A stretch of 64,000 bases of DNA. Origin: a virus (lineage: Duplodnaviria > Heunggongvirae > Uroviricota > Caudoviricetes). The DNA lies in IMG/VR virus record IMGVR_UViG_3300018481_000018, positions 67,759 through 131,758 of that record, one strand, 5' to 3'. How positions within the stretch are numbered: the first letter of the stretch is position 1; every line of letters begins with the position of its first letter. The notes beneath the pieces are model-generated. The model was not told the DNA's origin. It did not search any database and worked only from the letters and a program-made list of their open reading frames with translations. The translations under genes and the position numbers were made by a program. Positions 10,692 through 61,920 of this stretch are shown here, in pieces.

Positions 10692-10733
10692 AAAATCGGG
10701 TGGTGGGTGGTCGGTGACCAATGTTCGGATTGG
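10692..10733 (-). promoter_or_regulatory. conserved promoter-like motif (CAATCCGAACATT core plus CACCCACCACCC tract)
   Basis: Near-identical 40-mers at 17770, 24368, 28300; lies 5-45 nt upstream of gene start 10686. Confidence 0.55.
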
Positions 10734-10734
10734 G

Positions 10735-11241
10735 TCAGTCGTTGGTGATCTGATCGCCGTCTCGCCACGGCCGGACCGGCTCGATGGTGTGCTCGCGCAC
10801 CGCCGCCCAGATGATCTCGAGCGGGCCCAGGTGGGTCTCGTTGTGCAGGCCCAGGTATCGCCGCTCCAGCCCCGACCAGTCGTTGACGCTGACCATGCCG
10901 GCGCAGGTTGGGCAGCAGTTGTAGCCGCCACGGTTCTTGTAGATCTGGATCTCATCGGCCCCGGTCTTGGGGTTCCGCCAGGCCATGCCGAGGTCGAAGT
11001 CGCTGACCGGCAAGTAGCTACGCTCGGCCAGTGCGACCTGCTCGCCGCAGAAGTCGCAGACGCTCACGAGGAACTGGTCCTCGTACGGGATGGGCAGCAC
11101 CTCGTGGTCGATCTTCTTGAACTGTTCGGAGGGGTGGCCCCAGCGAGCGACGACGCTGCCGTTCTCCTTGAGCAACAGCCAGCTCAGGGTGATCCCGCAT
11201 CGGCCACAGATCATGGTGCCGACCTTGCCCTCCCTGTTCAT
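10735..11241 (-). CDS. hypothetical protein with CGRCG/CDFCG/CCPTC zinc-finger-like motifs (168 aa)
   Basis: ORF track. Confidence 0.6.
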   Translation of the reverse strand: MNREGKVGTMICGRCGITLSWLLLKENGSVVARWGHPSEQFKKIDHEVLPIPYEDQFLVSVCDFCGEQVALAERSYLPVSDFDLGMAWRNPKTGADEIQIYKNRGGYNCCPTCAGMVSVNDWSGLERRYLGLHNETHLGPLEIIWAAVREHTIEPVRPWRDGDQITND

Positions 11242-11342
11242 CAGAACGCCCCTCCCTTGAGTGCCAGTTCAGCCAGGACCCAGCCTGCGAGCGCCGCGAG
11301 GGGCAGGACGATCAGCCAGCCACGCAGGGACAGGCCCGTCAT
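11241..11342 (-). CDS. small membrane peptide (33 aa; alt start 11363)
   Basis: ATG 11342..11340 overlaps upstream stop (ATGA); hydrophobic LIVLPLAALAGWVLAELAL. Confidence 0.35.
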   Translation of the reverse strand: MTGLSLRGWLIVLPLAALAGWVLAELALKGGAF

Positions 11343-11823
11343 GTCTTTCGCTCGGTCAGCCATGACCCCAGGGCCTCCTCGTCGAACACCGTGATGGTGT
11401 CGGTGGATGGGTGGTAGGTGCCGATCGCCCTGACCAGCGTCGAGCCCACGAACACGCGGGCGCTGGTGGGGTAGGCGGTGACCATGCGGCCGGCGGCGTG
11501 CTGGACGCCCGCCTCCCACCGGCCCCGAGCGTCCCGGTTGGCGTACTGCGCAGCGCCGTACTTCCAGCCCTCGTAGTGGACGTCGACGCTGGTCTCTCCG
11601 GCAGGCCGACCAGCGCGGAGCCTGGGTCGATGCCCAGCCTTCCGGCGTCGGTGGGCACGTAGATCACCAGGCTCACGTCGTTGTACACGTAGCGGCCGCG
11701 CTCGTGGTACTGCGGAGCGGCTTGGCACTCCACACACTGGGGCCAGCCCCACTGCGTGTTGTGGGTGGTGTGCGTGGCGTCTCGCCAGCACGTCCACACG
11801 GATGTTGAGGTCGTCGTGGTCAT
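11339..11823 (-). CDS. hypothetical protein split over two frames (apparent -1 frameshift/indel near 11600-11625)
   Basis: N-terminal half is coding-like (high GC3) in the frame of ORF 11356..11823; C-terminal half is coding-like in the frame of ORF 11339..11797; switch at ..CTGCCGGAGAGACCAGC.. Confidence 0.45.
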
Positions 11824-12353
11824 GGCTTCTCCTCGGGGTCGATGCCGTGCTTCTCCAGGAGGGCGGTCAATCGCTCGACCTTCGCCTCGGCCTGCTTGCG
11901 CATGGCCAGCGGCGTGCGGTCCTCGGCGACGGAGATCGACAGCACGTACTGGCTGTCATCGGGCGCGTTGCCCGTCTTGACCTCCCACTCGACGTGGTTG
12001 ATCGCCTGGGGCTGGTGGGCCGAGAAGATCGCGTGAGCCACGCGCCCAAGGTCCAGGCACAGTTCCTCCGGCGGAGCGAATGCCAGCCAACCCTCGTCGC
12101 GGAAGCCGAGGAATTGCCCCTCGTACTCCGCGTCATCCTCGCTGCTCTTGGCCAGCCGCTTGAGGAACTCCGCGTCCAGGTCCTCGGCCGGGCCGTGCGG
12201 GATCCTCATGTGCAGGGCGTGGCGTGACGACGGTTCGATCACCGCGTCGGGCCAGGCCGCGCCGATCATCTGCATGAGCGCGCCGGCCACGTTGAGCGGT
12301 AGCGGCGACTCGATTCGGATGGGCATCCATTCCGACGTGTCCTGGTCGGTCAT
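11820..12353 (-). CDS. hypothetical protein (177 aa)
   Basis: ATG 12353..12351 (MTDQDTSEW..) overlaps upstream stop; ATGA overlap with downstream gene. Confidence 0.55.
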   Translation of the reverse strand: MTDQDTSEWMPIRIESPLPLNVAGALMQMIGAAWPDAVIEPSSRHALHMRIPHGPAEDLDAEFLKRLAKSSEDDAEYEGQFLGFRDEGWLAFAPPEELCLDLGRVAHAIFSAHQPQAINHVEWEVKTGNAPDDSQYVLSISVAEDRTPLAMRKQAEAKVERLTALLEKHGIDPEEKP

Positions 12354-12556
12354 TCCGCGACCTTCATGATGGAGGCGATGGCCTGCTCGACCTCGCGGGC
12401 TGTTACGCGTCGTTCGTCGATGCCGTCCAGGATGTTGGAGGGCAAGTCGTTGCAGCCGGTCGTTTCCCGGCAGGTCTCGCACCGGCCCCAGGACTGGAAC
12501 TCCTTGGGGAACTTCGGGTACCTGCTCTTGTCGGCGCACTCGTTGCAGTAGAACAT
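12350..12556 (-). CDS. hypothetical small Cys protein (68 aa)
   Basis: ORF track; CNEC..CETC..C. Confidence 0.5.
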   Translation of the reverse strand: MFYCNECADKSRYPKFPKEFQSWGRCETCRETTGCNDLPSNILDGIDERRVTAREVEQAIASIMKVAE

Positions 12557-12563
12557 CAGGCCA

Positions 12564-15982: not shown

Positions 15983-17743
15983 CTAGACCTTCTCGAAGAT
16001 CCGCTTGACCGATTCGGGCTTCAGGTCAGAGACGGGGATCACCACGTCGCTGATCTTGTTAAGCAGGCCCACCGGTCCGGTCTGGTAGGTCATGTCGTGA
16101 GCGCCTCCGATGTAGACCGAGTAGACCCGTACGCCGACGCGGTTGCGCTCGGCGTTGAACCTCTCGATCCACGTCTCGTCGAGGTGGGACTGGCCGTCGG
16201 TGATGAAGATGATGTCGGCCTTATCCTTCCCCGACTTGTCGAAGTCCTTGGTCGCCTTCTCCAGCGCCTCGGTGAGCACGCCGTCGAACTGCGTGCCCCC
16301 GTTGGCCTGAGTCCCGAGGAACGACATGACCTTCTCGAACGGCCCCTTGCCCTCGGGGAAGTCGAACCGCTCGCGGTCGTTGTTGTTGCCGAAGAACATC
16401 GCGTAGTAGTCACGATCCTCGTCGGCAGCGAACCGTTGCAGCGCCTCGGCCACGCCCATCGCCCACATGAAGGGCGAGCCCCCCATGGAGCCGGACTTGT
16501 CGATGGCGATCACGATGGGGCCCTTGCCGACCTCTTCGGTGCCGCGCATCTTGTAGACGAGCAGCTCCTTTTCCAGGTATCGGCGGTAGAACTCGTACGT
16601 CGTGTCCTTGTGCCCCAGGAGGGCGAACTGCGCCCGGAGCGTGCGACGAAGGTCGTCACCCGTCTCCACGTCGTACGCCTCGTGTGGCACGTCGTTGACC
16701 CTGGTGGCCTTGACGCCCAGTGCGAACCGCTTCATCTGTCCGATCACCTCGGACAGCGCCTTCATCTCCGGCGTGCGGAGTCGCTCGGCGAATGCCAGTC
16801 GTTCCTCGGGGTTCATGCTGTGCCACTCGCCGTCCTCCAGGCCGATGCCCTTGCGGAGGTTGTCGAGCTCGGATGCTTCGCGCTCGGCGGCGTCCAGCAT
16901 CTTGTTGGCCATGCGGTCGAGGTCGAGGTCGTCCAGCATGGCGTCGAACTCGGCCTCCCACTCCGCCTCGGCCTGGTTCATGGCGTCCTCGGAGTCGGGG
17001 TCGAACTCGTCGTCGCCCTCGCCAGTCAGATCCTCCTCAACCTCGGACCCATCGCCCTCGCCGGGGTCGAAGTCGTCGCCGGGAGATGCGCCGCCGGCAC
17101 CTTGGCTCCCACCCTCGCCCTGGCCTTCACCTGGGCTCGGCTGGCCCTCACCCTGGCCTTCACCGCCCTCGCCTTCGCCTTCACCTTGGCCTTCGCCTTG
17201 GCCCTTTCCGCCACCCTTCTTCTTCTTGCCGCCCGGCTGGGGCGGCGGGGGCGGCGGCGGGATGCGGCCGATGATCTCCCGGAGCGGCTCCGCCATGGCG
17301 TCGAGCGCCACGGTCGCCATCACCGGGTCGTTGACGGTGAACTCCTGGAGCTCCTTGAGCTTGGGGTTGTCCGCCACCTCCTCCAGGATCTTGCGCACCG
17401 GGTAGAGCTCGCGCTCGAGGTTGCGCTTGGCCTCCAGGCGAGGGTTCGCCTTGTAGAAGGACTGGAACAGACCCTCGACCAACTCCGGCGCGGGCTCGAA
17501 GCCTTCGCGGTGCCCGTTCTCACGGTGAGTGTCGCCGATCACCAGGTCTTCCACCAGGTCGTCAACGCTCTCGGTCTTGCGCGCCTCCTTCCACACTCGG
17601 TCGTCCCAGCGGTTGGTCTTGATGACCTTCCGGGACTTCTCCTTGGGCTGGGGCGGCGGGGTGAGGCCAGGACCCAGGAAGCCCTGGTTGCTGGCCATGC
17701 GGGACTTGAGCCTGTCGATGAAACTCACGGGCTGTGTGGTCAT
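15983..17743 (-). CDS. von Willebrand factor type A (vWA) domain protein with Gly/Glu low-complexity linker
   Basis: C-terminal IVIAIDKSGSM..GGTQF..IIFITDGQS: DxSxS metal-ion-dependent adhesion site plus conserved T/D; SD CAAGGAGGGGGA. Confidence 0.8.
   Translation of the reverse strand: MTTQPVSFIDRLKSRMASNQGFLGPGLTPPPQPKEKSRKVIKTNRWDDRVWKEARKTESVDDLVEDLVIGDTHRENGHREGFEPAPELVEGLFQSFYKANPRLEAKRNLERELYPVRKILEEVADNPKLKELQEFTVNDPVMATVALDAMAEPLREIIGRIPPPPPPPQPGGKKKKGGGKGQGEGQGEGEGEGGEGQGEGQPSPGEGQGEGGSQGAGGASPGDDFDPGEGDGSEVEEDLTGEGDDEFDPDSEDAMNQAEAEWEAEFDAMLDDLDLDRMANKMLDAAEREASELDNLRKGIGLEDGEWHSMNPEERLAFAERLRTPEMKALSEVIGQMKRFALGVKATRVNDVPHEAYDVETGDDLRRTLRAQFALLGHKDTTYEFYRRYLEKELLVYKMRGTEEVGKGPIVIAIDKSGSMGGSPFMWAMGVAEALQRFAADEDRDYYAMFFGNNNDRERFDFPEGKGPFEKVMSFLGTQANGGTQFDGVLTEALEKATKDFDKSGKDKADIIFITDGQSHLDETWIERFNAERNRVGVRVYSVYIGGAHDMTYQTGPVGLLNKISDVVIPVSDLKPESVKRIFEKV
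17100..17260 (-). repeat. GC-rich short tandem repeats encoding (GEGQ)n/Gly-Lys low-complexity tract inside the vWA gene
   Basis: ggccttcgccttcaccttggccttcgcc.. periodicity visible in sequence. Confidence 0.6.
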
Positions 17744-17769
17744 TCCCCCTCCTTGGGGTGGGTGTGAAG

Positions 17770-17810
17770 ATTTCGCGTGGGTGGTGCTGGGACTGAATGT
17801 TCGGATTGAG
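17770..17810 (-). promoter_or_regulatory. conserved promoter-like 40-mer (..CAATCCGAACATTCAGTCCCAGCACCACCCACGCGAAATC.. on - strand)
   Basis: Same element as 10692, 24368, 28300; immediately upstream of vWA gene start 17743. Confidence 0.55.
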
Positions 17811-18322: not shown

Positions 18323-19141
18323 TCAGGCCATCACGTGCTCGCCCTGGGTGGCAGGGCAGACCGCGTTCTCGGTCGAATCGTCGAGCACGACCCGGCCGTC
18401 GGCCAGTTGCTTGACGACCGAGACGCACGTGCTGCACATGCCGCGCTTGACCGGCGCGTTGCCAGCTTCGCGCTGGGCGTTGACGGCCTCATCCACGATC
18501 CGATCGCCCTGGGTGGCTCCGGGCTTGTAGCCCGCCTTGGTGGCCCCCTTGGGCTCCTGGTACATGAACAGGTAGCCGCCGCCGTTGTCCAGGACTCCGA
18601 CCCGACCGAGTCGCCCGGTCTTGAGCAGGAAGTCCAGCATGGCCAAGGCGGCCACGCTGTCGGCAGGGTCGACTTCGGCCAGCGCGTCCTCGAACGTTGC
18701 CGGTCCCGTGTTCATCAGTCCACCCAGCGCGCTGTTCACGGCGTTCTGGACGAGCGTCGAAATGTCGGGCTGCGGAGCGGCCGCCGCCGGCTGGGTGGTG
18801 AAGGCGGAGCCCGGAAGGGGCGCGATCCCCAGGTCGGAGCAGAGCCGCTCGTAGATGTCCGGCTTCTCGCCGATGTACTCGTTCAGGTACTCCTCGACCG
18901 TGCGGTCGGGGCCGACGTGCTGCTGGAACAGGTCGTAGTGCTCCGTGATGTGGTCGATCTGGGCGGCGGTGATGATTGCGCCCGGTCGCACGATGTCTTT
19001 CGTCATGGATTCCTCCTGGTGGTGTTCATGGCAAGTGGCGTACGGCCCGTATGGCCCCTGCGAGACGTGCGCGGCGGGGCGGGGAGGTTCGATCCCGTCC
19101 TCGATGCACCGCTCGCAGAGACCATCCAGGTATCCGTCCAT
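18323..19141 (-). CDS. hypothetical protein (272 aa; alt start 19006 with CCAGGAGGAA SD)
   Basis: ORF track; ATG 19141 shares a base with MoxR stop (TGATG). Confidence 0.6.
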   Translation of the reverse strand: MDGYLDGLCERCIEDGIEPPRPAAHVSQGPYGPYATCHEHHQEESMTKDIVRPGAIITAAQIDHITEHYDLFQQHVGPDRTVEEYLNEYIGEKPDIYERLCSDLGIAPLPGSAFTTQPAAAAPQPDISTLVQNAVNSALGGLMNTGPATFEDALAEVDPADSVAALAMLDFLLKTGRLGRVGVLDNGGGYLFMYQEPKGATKAGYKPGATQGDRIVDEAVNAQREAGNAPVKRGMCSTCVSVVKQLADGRVVLDDSTENAVCPATQGEHVMA

Positions 19142-20400
19142 CAGGCCGGCGAGTTGACGGCTGCGGCGTTGGCCAGGTTCTGCTGGGCCGTGGCGTCGAT
19201 GCCGAAGATGTCCTTGCCGATCTGGAGCTTGAACGAGTTCGCCTTGCCGATCACCTCGACCAGCCGAGTGGTCGCCGCACCAGCGGCCTGGGCCTTGGTG
19301 AGGTGCTCGTTGGCCTCAGCGAGCAGGCGGTCGATGTTCTTGACCTGCTCCACGCCGATCCGCTTCTTGCGGCTGTCGTCGACGTCGGGCTTGGACGCGG
19401 CGTTGATCTCGTCACGCACCTTGTCCAGGTCCTCGAGCAGGTCCAGTGCAGCCTTCTCGCCGGGGTTGGTGGCGGCCAGGATGACCGACCGGGCCTCGGG
19501 ACGCTGCTCCTGCACGGTCCACCACATGTTGGCGAGGACGTCCAGGTCGGCGACCTTCACCTCGTTGTGACCCCGGACCCAGGCGTTGGCCATGACGGCG
19601 GCCATGCCTTCGACCGAACGGCGGTCGCTGATGTTGATCTGGGCCTTGCCCTGGCGCAGCTCGTCGCGAATGTCGAAGAACATCGCCACCACCGGGTCGG
19701 ACACCGGCAGGGCCAGCGCCTCCTTGTGGGCCTGGTCGAGCTCGTCGAGCGTGACGATCGTCTTGCTCTGGCCGGGCACCATGGTGCTCACGCCGCGACC
19801 CACCAGGGCCATGCGAGCGATCGCGTCGCCCACCAGGTCGATCTGGTTCTGGCGGTCGGCCACGTAGTCGACGATGTGCCGGATGTGGATTCGGTCCCAC
19901 AGCGCGGCCTGGTCGGCATCGGCGTTCAGCTTGTTGGTGCCGGCGAACATCGAGCGCAGCTCGATCTCGTGCGGGATGCCGTTGTTGTGGAACACCCGCT
20001 CGTTCAGGATCGGCTGCATCGAGTGGAGCAGCGGACCGTTGGCGTTGAAGAACTCGTCGCAGAAGGCGTGAGTCGCCTCCGGCAGCATGCCGGTGGTGAC
20101 GCGGCGGGTCTTGCCGTCCTCGACCATGGCCTTGATGTCAGGCGGGCCGAAGACCTGCGAGGGGTCCGTGGTCTCGTCGAACGCGGACTCGAAGTACACC
20201 GAGCCCTCGATGTGGCTGCACATCCGACGGACGGCGTAGGACTTGCCGGTACCTGCCGGGCCGAGCATGAGCAGGTGCTCCTGAGCGACGGCGGCGACCC
20301 ACATGTCGTGGATCAGGGCCTCGCGCTCCTTGATGTCCTGGCTCATCTCGGCCACGATGTTGAGCACGCGGTCCTGAACGCTCGTGGTAGTGGTGGTCAT
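19141..20400 (-). CDS. MoxR-like AAA+ ATPase (AAA_5 type)
   Basis: Walker A LGPAGTGKS; MoxR-like spacing of later motifs; ATG 20400 preceded by GAGGAGGAGAC; ORF-track N-terminal Arg-rich 145 aa rejected. Confidence 0.8.
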   Translation of the reverse strand: MTTTTTSVQDRVLNIVAEMSQDIKEREALIHDMWVAAVAQEHLLMLGPAGTGKSYAVRRMCSHIEGSVYFESAFDETTDPSQVFGPPDIKAMVEDGKTRRVTTGMLPEATHAFCDEFFNANGPLLHSMQPILNERVFHNNGIPHEIELRSMFAGTNKLNADADQAALWDRIHIRHIVDYVADRQNQIDLVGDAIARMALVGRGVSTMVPGQSKTIVTLDELDQAHKEALALPVSDPVVAMFFDIRDELRQGKAQINISDRRSVEGMAAVMANAWVRGHNEVKVADLDVLANMWWTVQEQRPEARSVILAATNPGEKAALDLLEDLDKVRDEINAASKPDVDDSRKKRIGVEQVKNIDRLLAEANEHLTKAQAAGAATTRLVEVIGKANSFKLQIGKDIFGIDATAQQNLANAAAVNSPA

Positions 20401-20425
20401 GCGAGTCTCCTCCTCGGAGATTGGG

Positions 20426-20446
20426 TTCTGGACGTTCGTCTGAACT
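20426..20446. promoter_or_regulatory. imperfect palindrome GTTCTGGACG-TT-CGTCTGAAC (operator-like family member)
   Basis: ~26 nt upstream of MoxR start; related to sites at 35145, 44976, 46649, 47119. Confidence 0.4.
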
Positions 20447-20465
20447 GGCAGTTCGTTGGTAGCGG

Positions 20466-21701
20466 TCACTCTTGCCGCATGTGCTTGCGCTCGCGGATCG
20501 TTGCCCGAGCCCGTTTCTGCTGGCTTCGCTGTGCAGCCTCTCGGGCGTAGGCGATGAGGGTATCTTCCTCGCCGGTCAGGGACGCAACGGTTCGCGCCTC
20601 GTCCCACTTCTCGGCGATCTCGCCGTGATTCACCTGGGCGTGACAGTTGACCACGAACGTGCCGGTGGGTAGGTGCATGGTCAGGCTGTGCTGGTAGTCG
20701 AACCCGCTTTGAGTTTCGCCGTCGTGGACACTCTCGATGCTGACGGTGACCCCAGAGGCGTCGCCGCTGAGCAGCGCCTTCTGGAAGTCGTTCTCGGTCT
20801 TGTCGTCGATCACCATGCCGATGCCTCGCAGGCATGTTTGGAGCTCCCTGTAGAGGCGAAGGGCCTCGGTCAGGGTGGGCGTGCCGTCGAGGTAGTCGGT
20901 GAGGTCGGTGGTGAAGCCGCTGTGCATGTTCGTCTCGTACAGCTCCAGGTCCATCCAGGTCGGGTTCTCCGGGTCGCGGAGGTCGGGCACTTGAATGGTC
21001 TCGAAGTCGTCGATGTTGCGCACCTGGTTCAGTAGTCCTTCGACCAGCGCTCGCTCGGAGGTGTACTGGTTACGACCCAGCCAAGCAGCCCAGGTTGCCG
21101 GGTCGTCCCGGACGAACTCGCGTGCCGTGGCTGCCGCCTGGGTGTTCGGTGATACCGAGTTGATCAAGGTGTCGAAGGTGTGGTTCTGCACCCTGTAGGC
21201 AGCTGGGTGCAGCGCCTCCCACGCCCTGATCCCCACCGGCGCGGTGCGAGGAAGCATGACTGCGGTCTCGATCTTGTGCGCGCTGGATCCATTGGGATGG
21301 ACCCGGCCAGCGCTGACTACGACCAGCGCTTCGATCGGCAGCGTGGGATGTTTGAAGCGCCACCACACATTCGTCTTCGTGTGGAAGTTTTGGTCGAGGA
21401 CGTACAGCTCGGCGCGCGTCTCGGCCGGCTTGAAGCCCGCCTCGTCCTCGACCCTCTCCTCGTAGTCGTGCAGGGGCATCCAGATCGACGCCGCGTTCTT
21501 CTCGGCGTATGCCTGGACGGTGCGCATCACGAGTTCGTCCATGTCCTTGGTGAACGCGCTCAGGTCGGTGCCCGCGACGCGAACCTTCCGACCCGAGCCG
21601 GACTGCTCGAGCGCGGGTTCGGCCACGATCGTTCCGTCGGTGAGCAGCCACTGGCGCGACTGCTCAAAGTTGGTTCGTGGGTGCCAGGCTGTCTGCCCCA
21701 T
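20466..21701 (-). CDS. hypothetical protein (411 aa)
   Basis: ORF track; SD CGAGGAGGCTCAGC before ATG 21701. Confidence 0.6.
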   Translation of the reverse strand: MGQTAWHPRTNFEQSRQWLLTDGTIVAEPALEQSGSGRKVRVAGTDLSAFTKDMDELVMRTVQAYAEKNAASIWMPLHDYEERVEDEAGFKPAETRAELYVLDQNFHTKTNVWWRFKHPTLPIEALVVVSAGRVHPNGSSAHKIETAVMLPRTAPVGIRAWEALHPAAYRVQNHTFDTLINSVSPNTQAAATAREFVRDDPATWAAWLGRNQYTSERALVEGLLNQVRNIDDFETIQVPDLRDPENPTWMDLELYETNMHSGFTTDLTDYLDGTPTLTEALRLYRELQTCLRGIGMVIDDKTENDFQKALLSGDASGVTVSIESVHDGETQSGFDYQHSLTMHLPTGTFVVNCHAQVNHGEIAEKWDEARTVASLTGEEDTLIAYAREAAQRSQQKRARATIRERKHMRQE

Positions 21702-23322: not shown

Positions 23323-23705
23323 AAGTGCTCCTTGTGTCCTGGGTGGACCTGGGCTCCGCAGCGGCCGTGACAGGTGTCGCAGACGTACTCGGGCCAGTTG
23401 GCAGTCATCGTTCCCCCGCATCGTTGAGCGGTCAGATCGCGTTGTTCGATGTCGTTGCAGCAGGGAAGCTTCACGCTGATCGCCTCCCAAGGCTCGTGTT
23501 GGCCGTATGTGGAACGCTCGATCTCGTGGGACCAGCAAGTCCACCAATCGCGAGGTCGGCCGTCGGGTGGAGTGTCGACCGGAATCCAGGTCGTGCCGCT
23601 GGTTGCGCCGGTGTGCTTGAGCATCAGCTGGCAGTGGATGCACGGCGAGTTGCGGTAAGGCCCCTTCGGGTAGTGGTTCGGTCGGAGTTGGGTTTGGTCA
23701 CGCAT
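23298..23705 (-). CDS. hypothetical Cys/His-rich protein (135 aa)
   Basis: ORF track. Confidence 0.55.
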   Translation of the reverse strand: MRDQTQLRPNHYPKGPYRNSPCIHCQLMLKHTGATSGTTWIPVDTPPDGRPRDWWTCWSHEIERSTYGQHEPWEAISVKLPCCNDIEQRDLTAQRCGGTMTANWPEYVCDTCHGRCGAQVHPGHKEHLWATRLTS

Positions 23706-24354: not shown

Positions 24355-24367
24355 GAGGCTCCTCAGG

Positions 24368-48640: not shown

Positions 48641-48656
48641 CCTTGTTCGGATTGGG
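48641..48656 (-). promoter_or_regulatory. promoter-like motif copy (CCCAATCCGAACAAGG on - strand)
   Basis: Matches CAATCCGAACA core; start of 520-bp non-coding region. Confidence 0.4.
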
Positions 48657-50219: not shown

Positions 50220-50398
50220 CGTGGGCAGTCGACCTGGGCCCAGTCATCGGTCCAGGTGCCAGCCTTGGGTCCGCACACCGTGTCGGTGTCGCGGTTTCTC
50301 GGCCGGCCGGGTTTCGGCTTGGCGTAGTAGACGCCGTGCACGGTCTCGGTGGTGATTCTGGGTTTGGTCTCAGTCTTGGTCGACATGCCCGGCATCAT
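50180..50398 (-). CDS. hypothetical basic protein (~72 aa)
   Basis: ATG candidates 50398/50395/50386 right after promoter-like motif; ORF-track start 50416 is TTG inside the motif. Confidence 0.4.
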   Translation of the reverse strand: MMPGMSTKTETKPRITTETVHGVYYAKPKPGRPRNRDTDTVCGPKAGTWTDDWAQVDCPRCIAIARKRGARW

Positions 50399-50402
50399 AC
50401 CT

Positions 50403-50419
50403 GGCAATCCGAACAAAGG
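50403..50419 (+). promoter_or_regulatory. promoter-like motif GGCAATCCGAACAAAGG at divergent switch region
   Basis: CAATCCGAACA core; last - strand gene starts at 50398, first + strand gene at 50430. Confidence 0.5.
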
Positions 50420-50429
50420 GCGCTAGTCT

Positions 50430-50675
50430 GTGCTCGTGAACTCTCCTTGGAACAAGGCCAGTGGCGATCAACGACTCGTAGCGCTGACCCAGGCATCATG
50501 GCTCATGTCGGCGGCGGGGATCGGGTTGGCAATCGGCTGGCTGGTGGAGAACACCGATGCGGGGCCTGATGACATCGGCCTGTACCTGGTACTCACGTTC
50601 TTCTTGATCTCGGCCGGGTTGCGGATCCATGCCTCTCGCTACAGGCATCACCACCGTAAGGACTCTGGGCTGTGA
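50430..50675 (+). CDS. small membrane protein (start uncertain: GTG 50430/50436 or ATG 50505)
   Basis: ORF track; TM LVLTFFLISAGL; GC3 rises after 50505. Confidence 0.4.
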   Translation: MLVNSPWNKASGDQRLVALTQASWLMSAAGIGLAIGWLVENTDAGPDDIGLYLVLTFFLISAGLRIHASRYRHHHRKDSGL

Positions 50676-51854: not shown

Positions 51855-51868
51855 CAATCCGAACAAAG
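51855..51868 (+). promoter_or_regulatory. promoter-like motif CAATCCGAACAAAG upstream of tRNA cluster
   Basis: Same core as other copies; ~95 nt before first tRNA. Confidence 0.5.
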
Positions 51869-51962
51869 ATCGTGTACCCTCGCCGCATGAGATTCGGAAG
51901 GCACTGGCGCAACTCCGCCTGATCGTCGGCTACGTGCGGCCGGCGATCAGCCATGGCCCGTA

Positions 51963-52034
51963 GCTCAGCGGAAAGAGCACCCGCCTCCTAAGCGGTTGGC
52001 GCAGGTTCGAGTCCTGCCGGGCCAGCACGAGTGG
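51963..52034 (+). tRNA. tRNA-Arg (anticodon CCT)
   Basis: Manual cloverleaf: acceptor TGGCCCG/CGGGCCA, D-stem GCTC/GAGC, anticodon loop CTCCTAA, T-arm GCAGG-TTCGAGT-CCTGC. Confidence 0.75.
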
Positions 52035-52039
52035 GCATA

Positions 52040-52113
52040 GCTCAAGTTGGCAGAGCATCGGTCTCCAAAACCGAAGGTTGCAGGTTCGAGCCCTGCTGCC
52101 CATGCGATCCGGA
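52040..52113 (+). tRNA. tRNA-Trp (anticodon CCA)
   Basis: Manual cloverleaf: anticodon stem TCGGT/ACCGA perfect, loop CTCCAAA, T-arm GCAGG-TTCGAGC-CCTGC. Confidence 0.75.
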
Positions 52114-52168
52114 CTACGACCTCGGCCGAGATGAGGCACGAGCATCAATGATCCGGACTGGTCCCGTA

Positions 52169-52241
52169 GCTCAAGTGGCAGAGCGCCCGGCCCGAAGCTG
52201 GGAGGCTGGAGGTTCGAGTCCTCCCGGGAACGCAGGATGGG
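52169..52241 (+). tRNA. tRNA, isotype uncertain (anticodon loop CCCGAAG reads CGA with C33; short variable arm)
   Basis: Acceptor GGTCCCG/CGGGAAC (one G.A mismatch), D-arm GCTC-AAGTGGCA-GAGC, T-arm GGAGG-TTCGAGT-CCTCC. Confidence 0.55.
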
Positions 52242-52599
52242 CATGTGTTTGCATAAAGGCGCATAAGTGCACTAAGTTAGCCTACTTAGCGCCTAAGTCG
52301 CCCCATAGCCGCTCGTTCGGGGGCGAATTGGACATATAACACCCGTCTGTACAGGCAATTCGGGACCGGTTCTCGAATCCTGGCAAATCAGATGGACAAG
52401 TCTTTCGATTTTGCAGACAAGGCGACACAGTAGGTGGTATGGCTGCCGGTCACCCCTACCCGCACAGCCGTGTCAGGAACATGGCTGAGCTCTATACGCG
52501 CGCCTACTGGCGCTACTACGTCGTGGCGGTGACGTGGGCAGGAGTCAGTTGCGCGTGCTTCCAACTCCTGCCCGCACCGTTCTCGCCTAGGTAGTCGCC

Positions 52600-53214
52600 C
52601 TACTCGTAGATCTCCAGGGCGGCGTGGCCGAACAGGCAGCCGCCTCCAGCCTTCGCGGCTCCCCATCCTCCGCCGCCGGCGAGCGCTCCAATCACGGCGA
52701 GGCCGCCGCAGCGGAACATCAGCTTGTTCGTCTCCAGGAGCGTGTTGTTCACGGCCTTCTGGCCCGCGCCGCAGGTCGACTGGTTCACGCTGATCGGGTT
52801 CCAGATGATGCACGAGTTGAACTTCAGGTTCTCGCGCCACCAGTCGATCGGGCCTGCCTGGGCCTTCCAGGTGCCAGCTGCCTGCATGGCTGCCTGCTTC
52901 TTGGCGAGACGCTTGCGGATGTGCTTGGGCAGTCTCTTGCCCTTGGCGTTGCCGAGCTTGCCCTTGTCGAACTGGCGGGTCCTCTTCTTGGCCCACTCGT
53001 TCTGACAGTCCGTCTCGCAGACCGGGTACTTCAGACTGGCTCCCGCTACAGGACCCTCGGTCGCATTGGTGGCTGGTGCCCCTTCGGCCGTCTTCGCGTC
53101 GTAGACGAGCATCCCAATGAGTAGGACCAGGACTACCGGGGCGACTGTCAGCCACCACTTCTTCGTTCCGATCGCGTTCTTCAGGTGGCTCTCTCTCTGT
53201 TCGGTGTCGTTCAT
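52600..53214 (-). CDS. membrane-anchored Cys-containing protein (204 aa)
   Basis: ATG 53214 preceded by GAAGGAGTGTC; TM WWLTVAPVVLVLLIGMLVY; Gly-rich C-terminus. Confidence 0.55.
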   Translation of the reverse strand: MNDTEQRESHLKNAIGTKKWWLTVAPVVLVLLIGMLVYDAKTAEGAPATNATEGPVAGASLKYPVCETDCQNEWAKKRTRQFDKGKLGNAKGKRLPKHIRKRLAKKQAAMQAAGTWKAQAGPIDWWRENLKFNSCIIWNPISVNQSTCGAGQKAVNNTLLETNKLMFRCGGLAVIGALAGGGGWGAAKAGGGCLFGHAALEIYE

Positions 53215-53264
53215 GACACTCCTTCGTGACATGCGTCCGGGGGAGACGCTTCCGAGTCCGAACT

Positions 53265-53293
53265 GAATGTTCGGATTCCCAATGTTCGGTTAC
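53265..53293 (-). promoter_or_regulatory. two tandem promoter-like motif copies (GAATGTTCGGATTCCCAATGTTCGGTTAC)
   Basis: Seen in sequence; 50-80 nt upstream of - strand gene start 53214. Confidence 0.5.
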
Positions 53294-53452: not shown

Positions 53453-53481
53453 GCCGTCCATTCAGGGTGATACTGGCGGCC

Positions 53482-53757
53482 ATGATGATGGAGACGCTGC
53501 GCCTGATGGAGAAGCAGTACGACGTCGTGCTCGGGCCATGTCCAGGCTGCCAGCTCTGGCAGCTCGACTACACATACACCGCCGCCCAGACCTACACCTC
53601 GATCCGAATCAGTGAGATGTTCGAGTTCGGGTCCTCGGATCCCGTGACCTTCCCGGACATCGACATCTCCGGCTTCCACGAGGCCGTGGAGAGCGCTCTC
53701 CAGGAGCATCTCGAGGAGTGCCCGCACCTCCAGCGCGCGCTGTTCGACTTCGGCTGA
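53482..53757 (+). CDS. hypothetical protein with CPGC (91 aa; ORF-track start 53428)
   Basis: ATG triplet at 53482-53490; GC3 rises there. Confidence 0.45.
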   Translation: MMMETLRLMEKQYDVVLGPCPGCQLWQLDYTYTAAQTYTSIRISEMFEFGSSDPVTFPDIDISGFHEAVESALQEHLEECPHLQRALFDFG

Positions 53758-53896
53758 TTTTTCCGAACAAACGCGGCGAAGTTCCTGGTGAACGTCGTGG
53801 CCGTCATCTAATGTGCATAGCAGCCGGCGTGGCGGAGGACCCCGTTGCTCTCCACGCCGGTCACCATGCCGCTACCAACAGGCCCTGGGAGGCCGA

Positions 53897-57947: not shown

Positions 57948-57951
57948 ACAT

Positions 57952-58683: not shown

Positions 58684-58695
58684 TCCAGTTGCCTC

Positions 58696-58709
58696 AATCC
58701 GAACATTCG
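58696..58709 (+). promoter_or_regulatory. promoter-like motif CAATCCGAACATTC
   Basis: Exact core; followed ~220 nt later by intrinsic terminator. Confidence 0.5.
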
Positions 58710-58962
58710 GGCATCATTGGTCCTGGCGCAGGATGGCTAGAAACGGGAACCGGTGGTGTGAACACTGGCCCCCTCGGAGTCCATGACCGCATGCAAGAGC
58801 CGTTGCTTTGGGAGTGCACCCCGGGTCTCGGTGGCTACAGACGGGTGGGGCTTCGGCCCGGATGAGGACCGTGTGCACCGCGAGCGGAATGCTGCTGATC
58901 TGAAACCAGGTTTCTGCGCCACCGTGAAAGCCCCGATTCGTTACCGCATCGGGGCTTTTTCG
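58710..58962 (+). ncRNA. candidate small non-coding RNA (promoter-to-terminator unit, ~230 nt)
   Basis: Bounded by motif at 58696 and hairpin+U-tract at 58927-58962; no ORF with RBS inside. Confidence 0.35.
58927..58962 (+). terminator. rho-independent terminator AAAGCCCCGAT(tcgttaccgc)ATCGGGGCTTTTTCG
   Basis: 11-bp stem plus T5 tract; only canonical U-tract terminator in window. Confidence 0.75.
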
Positions 58963-59048
58963 TGCGCTAGGGTTGGTCTCGGTCGGGTTGGGCGTCACGG
59001 CCCCCTCGCAGCCAGTCCCGTTGAGTACTACTCCAGGAGGTTGCGATC

Positions 59049-59471
59049 ATGTCTGTCCGCGCGAAGTTCTTTGTTACCAGGCTGGTGAACCCCGAGGGTG
59101 CCACGGCCGCCGAAGTCGGTCTGACGCCCGTGTGTCGGGGTGTCGAGAACGCCCTGTGGTCTCAGGCCACTCCGTCCGGCTCGATCACGATGCATGTCAA
59201 GAACAACCCGGCCTTCGAGCAGTTCGAGCAAGGTGCCGAGTACGAGGTGACCTTCCGCAAGGTTGAGAAGCCCATGCCTGGTGACGGTCACCAGGTCAAG
59301 CCGGTCACCAACATGCACGGGTGGGACGTGTGCGAGATCTGTGGTGCTCACCTCGGTGCCAGTCACGCGCTGGTCGAGAGGGAGACCTGGCGAGCGGGGT
59401 ACGGCCCCGACAGTGAGGCGTACAAGAAGGCCCTGGTCATGCACGAGGAGACGTACGCCAAGGCTGAGTGA
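59049..59471 (+). CDS. hypothetical protein (140 aa)
   Basis: ORF track; SD CCAGGAGGTTGCGATC. Confidence 0.6.
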   Translation: MSVRAKFFVTRLVNPEGATAAEVGLTPVCRGVENALWSQATPSGSITMHVKNNPAFEQFEQGAEYEVTFRKVEKPMPGDGHQVKPVTNMHGWDVCEICGAHLGASHALVERETWRAGYGPDSEAYKKALVMHEETYAKAE

Positions 59472-59692: not shown

Positions 59693-60523
59693 ATGTCTGG
59701 AATCTTGTGGCACCATTCCTTCATGGAGCAAGTGAAGCTCGAGCCTGAAGTGCTCGACAACGCGTGGGCCGACTACAAGCTCAAGGGCGATCTCTCAGCT
59801 CGCAACGACCTTGCTCTCCACTACGTATCGCTGGTACGCGTGGTCGCGTTCAAGATCGCTGCGCAGCTGCCGAAGATGGTCGACCGCGAGGACCTGATGT
59901 CGTACGGGCTCTTCGGGCTCCTCGACGCGATCGAGAAGTATGACTTCGACAAGCAGGTGAAGTTCGAGACCTACGCGGTCACCAGGATCCGAGGAAGCAT
60001 CTTCGACGAGATCCGGGGCCTGGACTGGGTGCCCCGAACCGTCAGGGCCAAGGCCAGGGACATCGAGCGAGCGGAAACCGAGCTTCATGCCAAGCTCGGC
60101 CGGCCGGCAGCGGATGCGGAGGTGGCGGCGCACCTGGGCGTGACGCTGATCGACCTCTGGCAGACCCAAGCCCTGGCAGATAACGGCGTCGTCAACAGCT
60201 ACTACGACGACATCGGGGAGGGTGGAGCCGATGGCAAGACGGTGAGCGAGCGGTTCGCCTACACGAAGGCGGCCTACGATCCGACAGCCAATCCCGAGGA
60301 TCTCTACGCATCGCAGGAGGTTTGCGAGCTCTTGGCCGAAGCGGTCGACATGCTCCCTCAGCGATCAAAGACCATCCTCGTCCTCTACTACCTCTACGAG
60401 ATGACCCTGGCCGAGATCGGCGACATCCTCGGGGTCACGGAAAGCCGCGTGTGTCAGCTACAGAGCAAGCTCCTTCAGACACTTCACGTGTCCCTCGCGG
60501 AGGGACTCGTGGCGGCAGCTTGA
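59693..60523 (+). CDS. sigma-70 family RNA polymerase sigma factor (FliA/WhiG-like)
   Basis: Region 2 YGLFGLLDAIEKYD..FETYAVTRIRGSIFDEIR; region 4 HTH LTLAEIGDILGVTESRVCQLQSKLL; ATG 59693 after GGAGAATGAGGG; ORF-track upstream 75 aa rejected. Confidence 0.75.
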   Translation: MSGILWHHSFMEQVKLEPEVLDNAWADYKLKGDLSARNDLALHYVSLVRVVAFKIAAQLPKMVDREDLMSYGLFGLLDAIEKYDFDKQVKFETYAVTRIRGSIFDEIRGLDWVPRTVRAKARDIERAETELHAKLGRPAADAEVAAHLGVTLIDLWQTQALADNGVVNSYYDDIGEGGADGKTVSERFAYTKAAYDPTANPEDLYASQEVCELLAEAVDMLPQRSKTILVLYYLYEMTLAEIGDILGVTESRVCQLQSKLLQTLHVSLAEGLVAAA

Positions 60524-60625
60524 GCTGCCCGCGCTGCACCACCCAGGACGCCTGCTCCTGGTACTGCCCGGTCCACGATCAGCACCACGTCGTGCCCAGC
60601 CTTGTTCAGGCTTGTCTCGAGCGCG

Positions 60626-60877
60626 CTACTGCGCCGCCTGCTTGATCGACTCGATGGCTTCGTCGATCTCGGCCTGGGAGACTCGCTTCTCAAGTCCGGG
60701 CATCGCGCCCCGGATCCTGTCGTAGTCGCCCTCCAGGACGGACTTCGAGAGCAGGGCTTTCTGGAACTCGCTCATCTTGATGCCCACGTCATCGAGAGCG
60801 GCCTGCATTGATTCGGCGTAGACGTCGAGGAACATAGCTTGCCGGCCGTGGTTGGGCTCGTTCCACCCGTCAGGCAT
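60626..60877 (-). CDS. hypothetical protein (83 aa)
   Basis: ORF track; high GC3. Confidence 0.5.
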   Translation of the reverse strand: MPDGWNEPNHGRQAMFLDVYAESMQAALDDVGIKMSEFQKALLSKSVLEGDYDRIRGAMPGLEKRVSQAEIDEAIESIKQAAQ

Positions 60878-61259
60878 GGCTGCGCCACAGGCAATCGTTG
60901 CAGGTGATCCCGTGGTCCCTCAGGGTCGCGGTGTGGCCAGGGTTGCCGTCGCGATGCCGGTCCCATTGATCAGGCGCGGAGAGTTTCTCGACCTTCTTAC
61001 GAGGCATGGCCTCGCGGATCGACTTCAGGGCCTGACTGATCTCTTCCTCGGTGGGGGGCTCGGGCCCGGGTTCGGACCCTAGCGTCCAGGGGATGTGAGC
61101 CGTGGTCGTCGTGGGCGCGATGGTCGTGTAGGTGAGGCTGTCGGTGTTGTTGGTGATCATGATCTGGGAGTTGTCGAGCGGGATCCACTGCGTGCCGTCC
61201 CAAACTCTCACCTGGCCGTTGTTAGCCAGCTGCATGTCGCCCGCGCTCTGCATCGTCAT
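60870..61259 (-). CDS. hypothetical protein (129 aa)
   Basis: ORF track. Confidence 0.55.
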   Translation of the reverse strand: MTMQSAGDMQLANNGQVRVWDGTQWIPLDNSQIMITNNTDSLTYTTIAPTTTTAHIPWTLGSEPGPEPPTEEEISQALKSIREAMPRKKVEKLSAPDQWDRHRDGNPGHTATLRDHGITCNDCLWRSHA

Positions 61260-61879
61260 GCCATCGCCCTCCTGATGGACTCCACCGCTGCCGCCTCTTC
61301 ATCGGCCGGCACGGGCGGTGGTTGCGCCGTGCCCAGCGAGTTCTCGACCACCTGGAAGCCGACGGACTCGAGACTCTGGTCGATCTCGATCACGTGGTCT
61401 CTCCACTCGGCCGTTCTTGCCGGCCGCGTCTCGGTCCAGCCATTGACCTCTTCGGGGGGGATGGTGATCGCGAGCGGCTTGAAGCGCTGGACGAGCAGGC
61501 GCGTCAGTACGTTCATCCAGTCCCTGAACGTCCCAGTGCTGGCTGTATGCGCCGTCAACGTCTCGTCAGTCACCGCGTAGATGGCGGCCTCCATGAAGTC
61601 TTGGTTCGTTCTTCGGCTCCGGATCTCGATTCGGAACTCGTCTCGTTGGAAGTCGCGCGTGACCGCGAACTCTGTCCTGACGCCGAAGGGGGCCAACTGT
61701 CCACGAACCAGGCTGTCCAGGCCCTGGCCCAAACGCTGGGCCACTTGTTCCTCGAGTGCGATCTCATTGGCCCTGGCGCTGACGATGCGGCCAGGTTCCC
61801 GCTCGGCCGCCATGCGAGCCTCGGCTCTCTTCAGGACTTCTGCAAGGCGGGATCCGTGAGAAGTGAGCTTGGCCGTCAT
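61256..61879 (-). CDS. hypothetical protein (~207 aa; ORF-track start 61918)
   Basis: ATG 61879 (MTAKLTSHG..); 61918 start lies inside the + oriented promoter motif. Confidence 0.5.
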   Translation of the reverse strand: MTAKLTSHGSRLAEVLKRAEARMAAEREPGRIVSARANEIALEEQVAQRLGQGLDSLVRGQLAPFGVRTEFAVTRDFQRDEFRIEIRSRRTNQDFMEAAIYAVTDETLTAHTASTGTFRDWMNVLTRLLVQRFKPLAITIPPEEVNGWTETRPARTAEWRDHVIEIDQSLESVGFQVVENSLGTAQPPPVPADEEAAAVESIRRAMA

Positions 61880-61904
61880 GGGCCAAGAGTAGTCCCGTGG
61901 CGTG

Positions 61905-61920
61905 TCGAAACCGAACATTG
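61905..61920 (+). promoter_or_regulatory. promoter-like motif GTCGAAACCGAACATTGAG
   Basis: CCGAACATT core 14 nt upstream of ATG 61934; divergent region. Confidence 0.45.

Follow-up and report, generated by a model that had tools for sequence, protein, structure and literature searches.

The window analysed here is a stretch of 64,000 nucleotides that covers part of a phage genome of roughly 144 kb. The phage belongs, with the relatives that share its recurrent motif, to an uncultivated actinobacterial phage family that is represented by contigs of 80-147 kb and is present in many metagenomes. The window contains a long leftward gene array, a tRNA cluster, a sigma factor gene and a repeated 13-mer, CAATCCGAACATT, arranged as follows.

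10720-10732, − strand: exact CAATCCGAACATT in a 48-bp gap, 36 nt upstream of the gene at 10369-10686, with a degenerate extended element after the motif
17769-17808, − strand: exact motif (17796-17808) and exact 18-mer CACCACCCACGCGAAATC (17769-17786), upstream of a VWA-protein gene (15983-17743)
24367-24406, − strand: exact motif (24394-24406) and exact 18-mer (24367-24384), upstream of the gene at 23698-24354
28338-28350, − strand: variant CATTCCGAACGTT with a degenerate extended element, 135 nt upstream of a Ku-like gene (27355-28203)
48642-48654, − strand: copy CAATCCGAACAAG without the extended element, 190 nt upstream of the gene at 48124-48453
50384-50438, no single strand: divergent control region with the motif at 50405-50417 (+)
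51855-51880, + strand: motif CAATCCGAACAAA (51855-51867) and TACCCT (51875-51880), 87 nt upstream of the tRNA cluster
51954-52233, + strand: cluster of tRNA-Arg, tRNA-Trp and tRNA-Ser, downstream of a motif copy
53254-53293, − strand: tandem pair (53281-53293 and 53266-53278, 15 bp apart), upstream of a 210-aa gene (52600-53232)
53759-53771, + strand: copy TTTTCCGAACAAA, directly after the gene at 53482-53757
58695-58707, + strand: exact copy in front of the operon formed by the leader, a 140-aa gene and the sigma gene
58713-58964, + strand: conserved structured leader of about 250 nt, between the motif and the gene at 59049-59471
59693-60523, + strand: FliA/WhiG-family sigma of 276 aa with sigma-70 regions 2, 3 and 4, from profile searches
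61877-61936, no single strand: divergent junction with motif GAAACCGAACATT at 61907-61919 (+) and ATG at 61934
62700-62712, + strand: copy GATACCGAACATC at a convergent gene junction, facing no co-directional gene and conserved in relative L001

With up to two mismatches allowed on both strands of the window, CAATCCGAACATT had 11 matches where 0.47 were expected, and none of 100 shuffles reached 11, which confirms the recurrent promoter-like motif described in an earlier note on this DNA. Exact copies lie at 10720-10732, 17796-17808 and 24394-24406 (−) and at 58695-58707 (+); one copy has a single mismatch (53266-53278, −) and five have two (28338-28350 and 48642-48654, −; 50405-50417, 51855-51867 and 61907-61919, +). 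A further two-mismatch match at 3551-3563 is within a gene and probably due to chance. Nine of the ten real copies are intergenic, and all ten are oriented toward a downstream gene or the tRNA cluster. The tenth, previously placed at 28326-28339, was found at 28338-28350, which is not a gap but the low-GC3 3′ tail of the ORF at 28237-28977 (−). The commonest 11-mer of the window was CAATCCGAACA (n=7). Additional copies were detected at 53759-53771 (+) and 62700-62712 (+), together with an inverted partial copy at 53254-53266 (+); about 14 copies are visible in the window and at least four more within the next 9 kb. A variant reported at 53440, GAAACCGACGG, is present but weak, while the copy described ahead of the tRNAs is indeed there (motif 51855-51867, +; tRNAs 51954-52233). 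The extended element attributed to four leftward copies is exact in two of them and degenerate at 10720 and 28338. The leftward copies had also been described as preceding the first genes of gene strings, but they occupy gaps of 48-73 bp within one long leftward gene array and therefore are not ahead of first genes.

The distribution of the motif was similar across the phage family. In 242 kb from 11 loci, the pattern A[AT]NCCGAACA occurred 46 times, with 39 occurrences in intergenic DNA, which makes up 15.7 % of the sequence. Thirty-one of the 39 intergenic occurrences face the next gene, and three of the eight exceptions are at locus ends. In L012 and L013, with sigma factors 58 % and 56 % identical to that of the window, CCGAACA(TT) ranks first among intergenic 7-9-mers, and equivalent sites A-F hold the motif in all relatives. 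Every copy in the window contains CGA. Information content is restricted to the 12 bp of the motif, with none upstream; the 3′ ACA is conserved as strongly as CCG, and many copies end in AAA. The motif and the phage sigma gene were found together in every relative examined, and GX15bay, a terminase relative without the sigma, is also without the motif. The motif is non-random, intergenic, co-oriented with genes and conserved at equivalent positions in the family.

The sigma gene at 59693-60523 had been called FliA/WhiG-like, and profile scores place its product in that family: TIGR02479 was matched with 217 bits (cutoff 189.6), PF04542, PF04539 and PF04545 were each matched above cutoff, and the nearest solved structure is Streptomyces WhiG (6PFV, E=3e-62). 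The Streptomyces WhiG equivalog, NF004935, was rejected as an assignment at 255.8 bits, below its cutoff of 343. In a Pseudomonas sigma-28 structure, residues Y76, R80, R82, D87, D93, R97 and R104 read −12G, the flipped −11A and the extended −10 (PMC12784957). The equivalent residues of the phage sigma (Y94, R98, R100, D105, D111, R115 and R122) are invariant in 8 of 8 phage sigmas, as is the SRVCQ segment corresponding to the −35-reading residues (Pseudomonas S224 and Q228). The −35-reading helix ESRVCQLQSK is invariant in the phage sigmas and identical in a cellular homologue, and the DNA-reading segments are identical to those of a cellular homologue from Nonomuraea. Judged by profiles and residues, the protein is a true FliA/WhiG-family member with conserved DNA-reading residues.

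For Actinoplanes missouriensis, the consensus is CTCA-N16-17-GCCGAACT for WhiG1 and T(A/C)AA-N16-GCCGATAA for WhiG2; the central CGA is highly conserved in both −10 elements, and the −35 box of WhiG promoters in the host is strongly conserved as well (PMC12871210). CCGAAC corresponds to positions 2-7 of GCCGAACT, including the invariant CGA, and agreement with GCCGAACT is 6/7 bases for TCCGAAC and 6/8 for the motif reading TCCGAACA. The motif also agrees with the sigma-28 −10 pattern GCCGA(T/A)(A/C)(A/T) and its central CGA, and the chance of CCGAAC or CCGATA in a random 13-mer, on either strand, is roughly estimated at less than about 1 %. None of the 62 intergenic CCGAACA sites in the 11 loci had a −35 box (T(A/C)AA or CTCA at N15-18). 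No canonical WhiG promoter was found in any intergenic region examined, which leaves the motif as the only candidate target of the sigma there. The invariant and cellular-like −35 helix of the sigma, on the other hand, argues that its true targets have a −35 box.

For the rightward gene at the 61907 junction and its equivalents in 8 loci, nothing but the motif is conserved upstream, and TANNNT is missing. No sigmaA-like −10 was found for the rightward gene at this junction; the leftward side has a leaderless start (CAT, 61877-61879) and a −10 (reverse complement TACTCT, 61886-61891). TANNNT is also missing after the terminase gene, where the motif stands between a hairpin terminator and the next genes, and copies without TANNNT include those at 10720, 17796, 24394, 58695 and 61907. 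The 58695 copy is conserved in L001, L005, L008 and L011; conservation starts at the motif and runs into the structured RNA, the 3′ end of which is an intrinsic terminator (58926-58964), and the upstream flank is not conserved. The conserved copy at the convergent junction counts against reading the motif as a promoter.

TANNNT follows CCGRACA at exactly 8-9 nt in 7 of 51 sites (about 15 %), compared with about 0.6 expected by a rough estimate from base composition, and most sites have no −10-like hexamer within 40 nt. In the TANNNT-bearing sites, the motif extends from about −31 to −19, and poor hexamers (CTGGCA, ATGCCA) stand at −35. On this sequence context, motif copies 8-9 nt before TANNNT occupy the spacer of leaderless, sigmaA-like promoters, an operator geometry. 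The divergent region at 50384-50438 has a leaderless start (CAT, 50384-50386) and a sigmaA-like −10 (reverse complement TATGAT, 50394-50399) on its leftward side, and a −10 (TAGTCT, 50424-50429) and a leaderless GTG (50436) on its rightward side; one motif copy likewise lies between two divergent leaderless sigmaA-like promoters at L013 974. A sigmaA-like TAATGT is found 39 nt downstream of the 53759 copy, as in L002 and L010.

Motif copies are also clustered. In the window, the second tandem member at 53281-53293 (−) reads GTAACCGAACATT, and with the tandem pair the inverted partial copy at 53254-53266 (+) gives TCCGAAC-N5-GTTCGGA. L002, L010 and L011 use CCGGACA, with G at the would-be flipped −11, and L010 has it in place of CCGAACA at an equivalent site. 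CCGGACA forms tandem arrays with a spacing of 19-20 bp or 9 bp as well as inverted pairs, and clusters were found at L010 6698-6743 and L011 9776-9934, with a triple array at L002 15666-15690. The sigma factors of CCGGACA-carrying relatives showed no compensating change. The earlier note had proposed either a phage-specific promoter class or an operator overlapping promoters. The promoter class is favoured by the non-random, oriented and conserved distribution, the match to the WhiG1 −10 and the true FliA/WhiG sigma, but the lack of a WhiG −35 box, the sigmaA spacer geometry and the CCGGACA arrays count against it and keep the operator option alive.

We give about an even chance to the motif being a −35-independent promoter class, most likely read by the phage WhiG/FliA sigma. 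The box, c-A-A-t-C-C-G-A-A-C-A-t, would be of the extended −10 type and would form the core element of a promoter specific to this phage family. We infer that host core RNA polymerase carrying the phage WhiG/FliA-family sigma would recognise it without a −35 box and start transcription about 7-9 nt downstream of CCGAACA. Some copies would (re)initiate transcription inside the 50-kb leftward gene array, others would drive the tRNAs, the divergent junctions and the genes past the terminator of the terminase gene, and the copy before the leader and sigma operon would provide positive feedback. At a few early junctions the box would be superimposed on host sigmaA leaderless promoters, so that host sigmaA could transcribe these genes at first and the phage sigma could take over later. 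More tentatively, these phages may have taken a cellular-type WhiG/FliA sigma for a −35-less 12-bp extended −10, CAATCCGAACAT, overlaid on sigmaA leaderless promoters to give a sigma switch on the same DNA, with the sigma operon gated by a hitherto undescribed leader RNA of about 250 nt with a terminator.

The motif might instead be an asymmetric stoperator-like site for a phage DNA-binding protein, comparable with those of mycobacteriophage L5, which we consider the main alternative, though a less likely one. Copies in the spacers of sigmaA early promoters would then block initiation and those in short operon gaps would block elongation in an orientation-dependent manner, keeping a prophage silent or timing gene expression. 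Stoperators are 13-bp asymmetric sites with more than 20 copies, located in promoters and short intergenic spaces, and their orientation tracks transcription (PMC9283540). The motif has all of these published properties but fewer visible copies (about 14 and at least four). Blocking sites would also suit the fixed 8-9 nt spacing between motif and TANNNT in 7/51 sites, the single copy between divergent leaderless promoters (50384-50438 and L013 974), the tandem and inverted clusters in the window (53254-53293), L010, L011 and L002, and the absence of a −35 box. L002 carries an integrase, which suggests that it is temperate, and in every relative the gene directly after one motif copy codes for a small winged-helix protein of LexA type whose recognition helix is conserved. 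However, the proteins tested yielded no repressor resembling L5 gp71 or CI: the L5 gp71 type (monomeric, with HTH and stoperator domains) was not found among about 30 regulatory-region proteins, from part of the roughly 144-kb genome, scanned against Pfam, NCBIfam or PHROGs, or in the two compared with solved structures. The 11-12 bp motif persists at 56 % sigma identity, whereas immunity specificities normally diverge in related temperate phages; the expected divergence of sites was not seen, with only L002, L010 and L011 adding CCGGACA. Moreover, several divergently transcribed genes and those after the terminase terminator would be left without a recognisable promoter, and the match of CCGAAC to the WhiG1 −10 would become a coincidence.

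It is unlikely that a host sigma uses the motif as its promoter element, be it a sigma of WhiG1/FliA type or sigmaA with RACATT as a weak −10, which would leave the phage sigma to a different task, for instance taking over the host WhiG regulon for motility or development. Since the DNA-reading segments of the phage sigma and the Nonomuraea homologue are the same, the two kinds of sigma would recognise identical sites, and the RACATT register tolerates the CCGGACA variant because AACATT and GACATT both keep A at −11 and T at −7. Bacillus phages have been reported to carry homologues of sporulation sigmas, which are thought to act on the host. One study reports sporulation genes in gut phages (PMC10294663). 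Yet the AAA ending of many copies removes the −7 T, the −35 box so strongly conserved in host WhiG promoters is absent, and the motif accompanies the phage sigma gene in all relatives examined and is missing from the sigma-less terminase relative. Less probable still is that the motif binds an activator encoded by the phage, similar to T4 MotA or to an activator of late genes; such a protein would recruit host sigmaA polymerase to promoters with a poor −35. The small winged-helix protein is a candidate activator and the TANNNT sites have the motif at about −31 to −19 with poor −35 hexamers, but no more than about 15 % of sites have a −10-like hexamer at the needed distance, and the majority lack one within 40 nt. 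A MotA-type arrangement has a host-sigma −10 at a fixed distance downstream of every box, and here this was seen at 7/51.

If the motif is a promoter of the phage sigma, this would be the first known sigma-28-family sigma to serve a phage's own transcription programme; a literature search for a phage using such a sigma on its own genes found none. It would also be a natural WhiG/FliA-type sigma working without a −35, with a bearing on promoter recognition by group 3 sigmas, and oriented CAATCCGAACAT would provide a one-line rule for transcription units in a large uncultivated phage family. If the motif is a stoperator, asymmetric and orientation-dependent repression would extend to an unrelated phage lineage; to our knowledge, such repression is known only from Cluster A mycobacteriophages.

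The WhiG1/FliA promoters of Actinomycetota share with the phage motif the CCGAAC core with its CGA, and the phage encodes in cis a sigma from that family whose DNA-reading residues agree. In contrast to them, the motif is without a −35 (0/62), begins with T rather than the G of WhiG1, conserves an upstream CAA and the 3′ ACA instead, and stands at phage genes and tRNAs, not at flagellar or developmental genes. The operators and stoperators of Cluster A phages (L5 gp71, TipsytheTRex repressor) are similarly asymmetric sites of about 13 bp, oriented and with many copies in promoters and short gaps. The L5 stoperator, GGTGGMTGTCAAG, is unrelated in sequence, however, and the proteins tested here included no homologous repressor; the phage motif is also undiverged in distant relatives, and several copies are the sole candidate promoter of their gene. 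Promoter classes of phage sigmas are known from Bacillus phage SPO1 (gp28, gp33/34) and from T4 (gp55), whose late promoters, TATAAATA, have no −35. As in SPO1 and T4, the phage carries its own sigma and has a short, highly conserved, oriented box before transcription units, and, as at T4 late promoters, one extended −10-type box would suffice here with no −35. The candidate sigma differs in being a full three-domain sigma-28-family protein with near-cellular DNA-reading residues, and some motif copies overlap sigmaA-type promoters. Thermus phage P23-45 has −35-less middle and late promoters of the extended −10 type; they are served by the host primary sigma and phage proteins that disable −35 recognition, and P23-45 itself encodes no sigma. 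The two phages would share a class of promoters in which the extended −10 is sufficient, but the phage described here encodes its own sigma.

The CCGAACA motif (12–13 bp, oriented) was far more frequent in the window than expected, with 11 occurrences of CAATCCGAACATT at ≤2 mismatches compared with 0.47 predicted, and CAATCCGAACA was the commonest 11-mer.

Motif copies in the window
10720, 17796, 24394, 28338, 48642, 53266, 53281 (−): leftward copies
50405, 51855, 58695, 61907 (+): rightward copies
53759, 62700, 53254: three additional copies, 53254 being an inverted partial copy
53254–53293: cluster with two copies in direct and one in inverted orientation

Apart from a match at 3551, within a gene and probably a chance occurrence, all copies were intergenic except 28338, which lies within an ORF, in its low-GC3 tail. 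All were oriented towards the next gene or the tRNAs, bar 62700 and the inverted partial copy at 53254. The earlier note had described a recurrent motif in front of genes and of the tRNA cluster; nearly all copies are indeed intergenic and gene-facing, and the copy at 51855 points at the tRNAs. Its extended consensus of ~40 bp in four leftward copies was only partly borne out; an 18-mer of this element is exact at only two copies and degenerate at two more. At least four more copies lie nearby in the same genome, beyond the window. An origin as a mobile repeat was ruled out, as similarity does not reach beyond ~40 bp and unrelated genes flank the copies. A role of the 13-mer itself at the RNA level was also ruled out: no structure is common to the copies, and a palindrome containing the motif (53258–53278) would sit upstream of the predicted start site. 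The copy at 62700–62712 (+), like that at 7864–7876 of the related phage locus L001, lies at a convergent gene junction with a conserved CCGTCTGAAACAGGATA before the motif, and in another relative, L007, the motif at the equivalent spot runs the opposite way with respect to this flank. This convergent-junction copy is accounted for by neither a promoter nor an operator model.

The window has a G+C content of 64 % and comprises one long run of small leftward genes (1 to ~50.4 kb) followed by a regulatory region of mixed orientation (50.4–64 kb). Recognisable genes include those for a MoxR-type ATPase, a VWA protein, an ATP-dependent ligase, a Ku-like protein, a dual-specificity phosphatase and three tRNAs. 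No close relative of the window was found among GenBank phages searched by DNA; GenBank phage matches to the sigma factor had ≤41 % identity, with none from a named actinobacterial phage. Neither the sigma protein nor the 40-bp extended motif had matches in scans of IMG/VR, and a scan of GTDB genomes with the sigma protein gave a sole, unrelated match of 42 %. Sigma homologues pointed to many syntenic metagenomic contigs (15–141 kb) that also encode RusA and the terminase large subunit, with an integrase seen in L002 alone. The terminase of L005 shares 44 % identity with that of Caudovirales GX15bay, which has neither a WhiG-like sigma factor nor the motif. The sigma factor of a complete 144,413-bp JGI contig falls in the same 90 %-identity cluster as that of the window; more than 100 relatives bear the sigma gene, and the other full-length contigs measure 80–147 kb. 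Contig L016 (ENA ERZ27251452 k141_275179; its coordinates plus 58359 give those of the window) matches the right end of the window with 100 % identity across 5,641 bp and adds 9.3 kb of the same genome, reaching through the terminase and portal region (window-equivalent 58360–73275). The source is a large, uncultivated actinobacterial phage, probably temperate.

Other features of the phage genome
26095–27258 (−) and 27355–28203 (−): adjoining ATP-dependent DNA ligase-like and Ku-like genes that make up an end-joining pair carried by the phage, with a variant of the motif 135 nt ahead of the Ku gene
15983–17743 (−) and 19141–20835 (−): ViaA-like VWA protein and MoxR/RavA-type AAA+ ATPase, an unusual phage cargo, with two small genes and one motif copy between them
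48454–49158 and 52234–52599: 365–700 bp without a convincing ORF, the latter relatively AT-rich, bordering motif copies and the tRNA cluster; they may contain attP, small RNAs or other regulatory sites
L016 11795–12154: HNH-like leftward gene situated after the post-terminase motif copy and before the next rightward gene

Several of the terminase large subunits (P0153, P0160, P0177, P0189 and P0210) have 830–900 aa compared with ~540 aa and carry extra domains (PF14528, PF13403 and PF14890), which suggests that in some relatives this gene holds an insertion element, possibly an intein.

CCGAACA was the top intergenic word in the relatives, including L012 and L013, whose sigma factors are 58 and 56 % identical. 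Across 11 loci (242 kb), intergenic DNA makes up 15.7 % of the sequence and contained 39 of the 46 matches to A[AT]NCCGAACA, of which 31 were gene-facing. Alignment of 50–62 sites limited the information to cAAtCCG(A/G)ACAt, with unconserved flanks on both sides.

Equivalent motif positions in the relatives
Site A: ahead of the operon of the 140-aa gene and the sigma gene
Site B: ahead of a small rightward gene at a divergent junction (window 61907)
Site C: ahead of a 63-aa gene
Site D: ahead of the winged-helix gene and RusA
Site E: ahead of the phosphatase block
Site F: past the terminator downstream of the terminase gene

The product of 59693–60523 (+) passed the FliA/WhiG family model (217 bits, cutoff 189.6), in agreement with its initial description as a FliA/WhiG-like sigma factor. 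It fell below the cutoff of the Streptomyces WhiG equivalog model, and its closest solved structure is Streptomyces WhiG. The published promoter consensus sequences are CTCA-N16-17-GCCGAACT for WhiG1 and T(A/C)AA-N16-GCCGATAA for WhiG2, both with a highly conserved central CGA (PMC12871210). By this WhiG1 consensus, the CCGAAC contained in the phage motif, TCCGAACA, is identical to the WhiG1 −10 core. In the Pseudomonas sigma-28 open complex, GCCGATAA occupies −15 to −8 with A-11 flipped out; G-12 is read by R80, the extended −10 by R97 and the −35 by S224 and Q228, with D87 contacting −13/−12 (PMC12784957). Counterparts of all these residues were present in the aligned phage sigma factor, and the DNA-reading residues were invariant in eight phage sigma factors and a cellular Nonomuraea homologue. 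On the Pseudomonas register, transcription would start ~8 nt past CCGAACA.

A WhiG-type −35 box was found at none of 62 sites, nor was any −35 element found upstream of the motif at fixed or variable spacing, despite strict conservation of the −35-reading helix of the phage sigma factor. Failure of this −35 test means that the motif does not qualify as a canonical sigma-28 promoter. Canonical WhiG promoters (TAAA/TCAA/CTCA, N15–17, NCCGA) gave scattered matches, mostly coding and none conserved, and were not found in the intergenic regions examined, including 10 kb of the structural module. A conserved hairpin, CGTCTC...GAGACG, occurs ahead of a small gene, ~70 nt past a motif copy (L001 9815–9875, L005 14455–14520 and L007 14195–14260); its loop, with (G/T/C)CCGATAAC, resembles a canonical sigma-28 −10 element, but a −35 box is absent.

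The sigmaA-like −10 hexamer TANNNT showed a sharp peak 8–9 nt after CCGRACA (7 of 51 sites), which places the motif at ~−31 to −19 of sigmaA-like promoters; the tRNA-facing copy has TACCCT (from 51875) at 9 nt. The motif was ruled out as the −35 box of a nearby TANNNT, as the gap of 8–9 nt is too short. A simple sigma-70 consensus scan of 47.5–64 kb gave no matches, and a terminator scan gave no enrichment. At 50384–50438, one motif copy lies midway between two divergent, putatively leaderless promoters (−10 hexamers 50394–50399 and 50424–50429), and the architecture at L013 974 is the same. Of the two genes at site B, the leftward one clearly has a sigmaA-type leaderless promoter (TACTCT, six bases, ATG); the rightward one is without a −10-like hexamer in all relatives, with the motif alone 15–30 nt upstream. 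The order at site F is terminase gene, strong hairpin, motif and next genes, with no TANNNT. Hexamers of this type (TATGAT, TAGTCT, GATACT and TACTCT; 50384–50438, 53469–53484, 61877–61891 and L013 952–1000) lie 6–7 nt from ATG/GTG starts, a spacing that implies leaderless transcripts at divergent junctions. The longest-ORF starts at 50416, 53428 and 61918 are probably too long, and the real starts are likely to be 50386, 53482 and 61879.

At site A, conservation begins at the motif, the DNA upstream being unconserved, and extends into a region of ~250 nt (58713–58964, +) between the motif copy and the operon of the 140-aa gene (59049–59471) and sigma gene. Equivalents occur at L001 2713–3035, L005 9020–9290, L008 8880–9235 and L011 9156–9425. 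This leader contains conserved blocks (GAACGGGAACC, GGCCCCCTCGGAGTCC, GGATGAGGAC and CTGATCTGAAACC) and several compensatory base pairs, and ends in a classic intrinsic terminator (58926–58964). Rfam identified three tRNAs only, with no match to the leader at 58.7–59.0 kb. Its features resemble those of a structured leader, attenuator or small RNA not described before, which would gate the sigma operon.

Some relatives carry a CCGGACA variant, as AAACCGGACA in L002 and L010 and as GCCCGGACA in L011. It takes the place of CCGAACA at site C of L010; at sites A and D it follows CCGAACA by 19–20 bp.

Positions of the CCGGACA variant in the relatives
L010: 5918–5960, 6698–6743, 10673–10716, 12582–12607
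L002: 9661–9686, 14651–14676, 15666–15690 (the last a triple 9-bp array)
L011: 9776–9934

Inverted or direct clusters precede the sigma gene, and the arrays (tandem, triple or inverted) concentrate there, beside an HTH_17/MerR-type gene that is extra in the CCGGACA lineages and absent from that of the window. The arrays are likely to be an operator set for a lineage-specific regulator. The G of CCGGACA at the flipped −11 position is not easily squared with a sigma factor that has stayed the same. Among candidate repressors, no relative of the 210-aa protein (52600–53232) beside the tandem copies was found in Pfam, NCBIfam, PHROG or PDB, and none of the 140-aa protein upstream of sigma in Pfam, NCBIfam or PDB, the latter matching only one PHROG, weakly, whose function is unknown. 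In every relative, the gene immediately after a motif copy codes for a small LexA-type winged-helix protein whose recognition helix is conserved (L016 7209–7484, window-equivalent 65568–65843), so a conserved DNA-binding reader is available.

On balance the motif is probably a promoter element of some kind; that it is read specifically by the phage WhiG-family sigma factor, without a −35, has about an even chance. The phage promoter class proposed in the earlier note is supported by the WhiG1 −10 core and the retained DNA-reading residues, but not by a −35 box. Further support comes from the site B rightward gene and the site F genes, which have the motif and no −10-like hexamer, from conservation starting at the motif at site A, from the failure to find a canonical WhiG promoter in the intergenic regions examined and from the joint absence of sigma factor and motif in GX15bay. 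A promoter does not fit the lack of −35 boxes set against a strictly conserved −35-reading helix, the TANNNT spacing, the CCGGACA variant in L002, L010 and L011, the direct and inverted copies at 53254–53293 or the copy at 62700 facing a convergent gene.

The same misfitting features characterise the operator and stoperator sites described in mycobacteriophage L5 (PMC9283540), and the winged-helix protein could serve as reader of a stoperator-like or other protein-binding site. This alternative is nevertheless rather unlikely: no L5-like or CI-like repressor was found among the proteins tested, several genes would lack a promoter, the match of CCGAAC to the WhiG1 core must be coincidence, and immunity sites normally diverge between relatives, whereas the phage motif does not. 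A promoter read by a host sigma factor appears improbable, and an activator box more improbable still. A workable synthesis retains the promoter reading, in which CCGAACA would be a sigma-dependent box, the CCGGACA arrays of some lineages would be operators of a separate, lineage-specific regulator, and TANNNT-linked copies would represent superimposed host sigmaA and phage-sigma promoters. If the motif is a promoter, it adds to the known pairing of a phage sigma factor with its cognate promoter.
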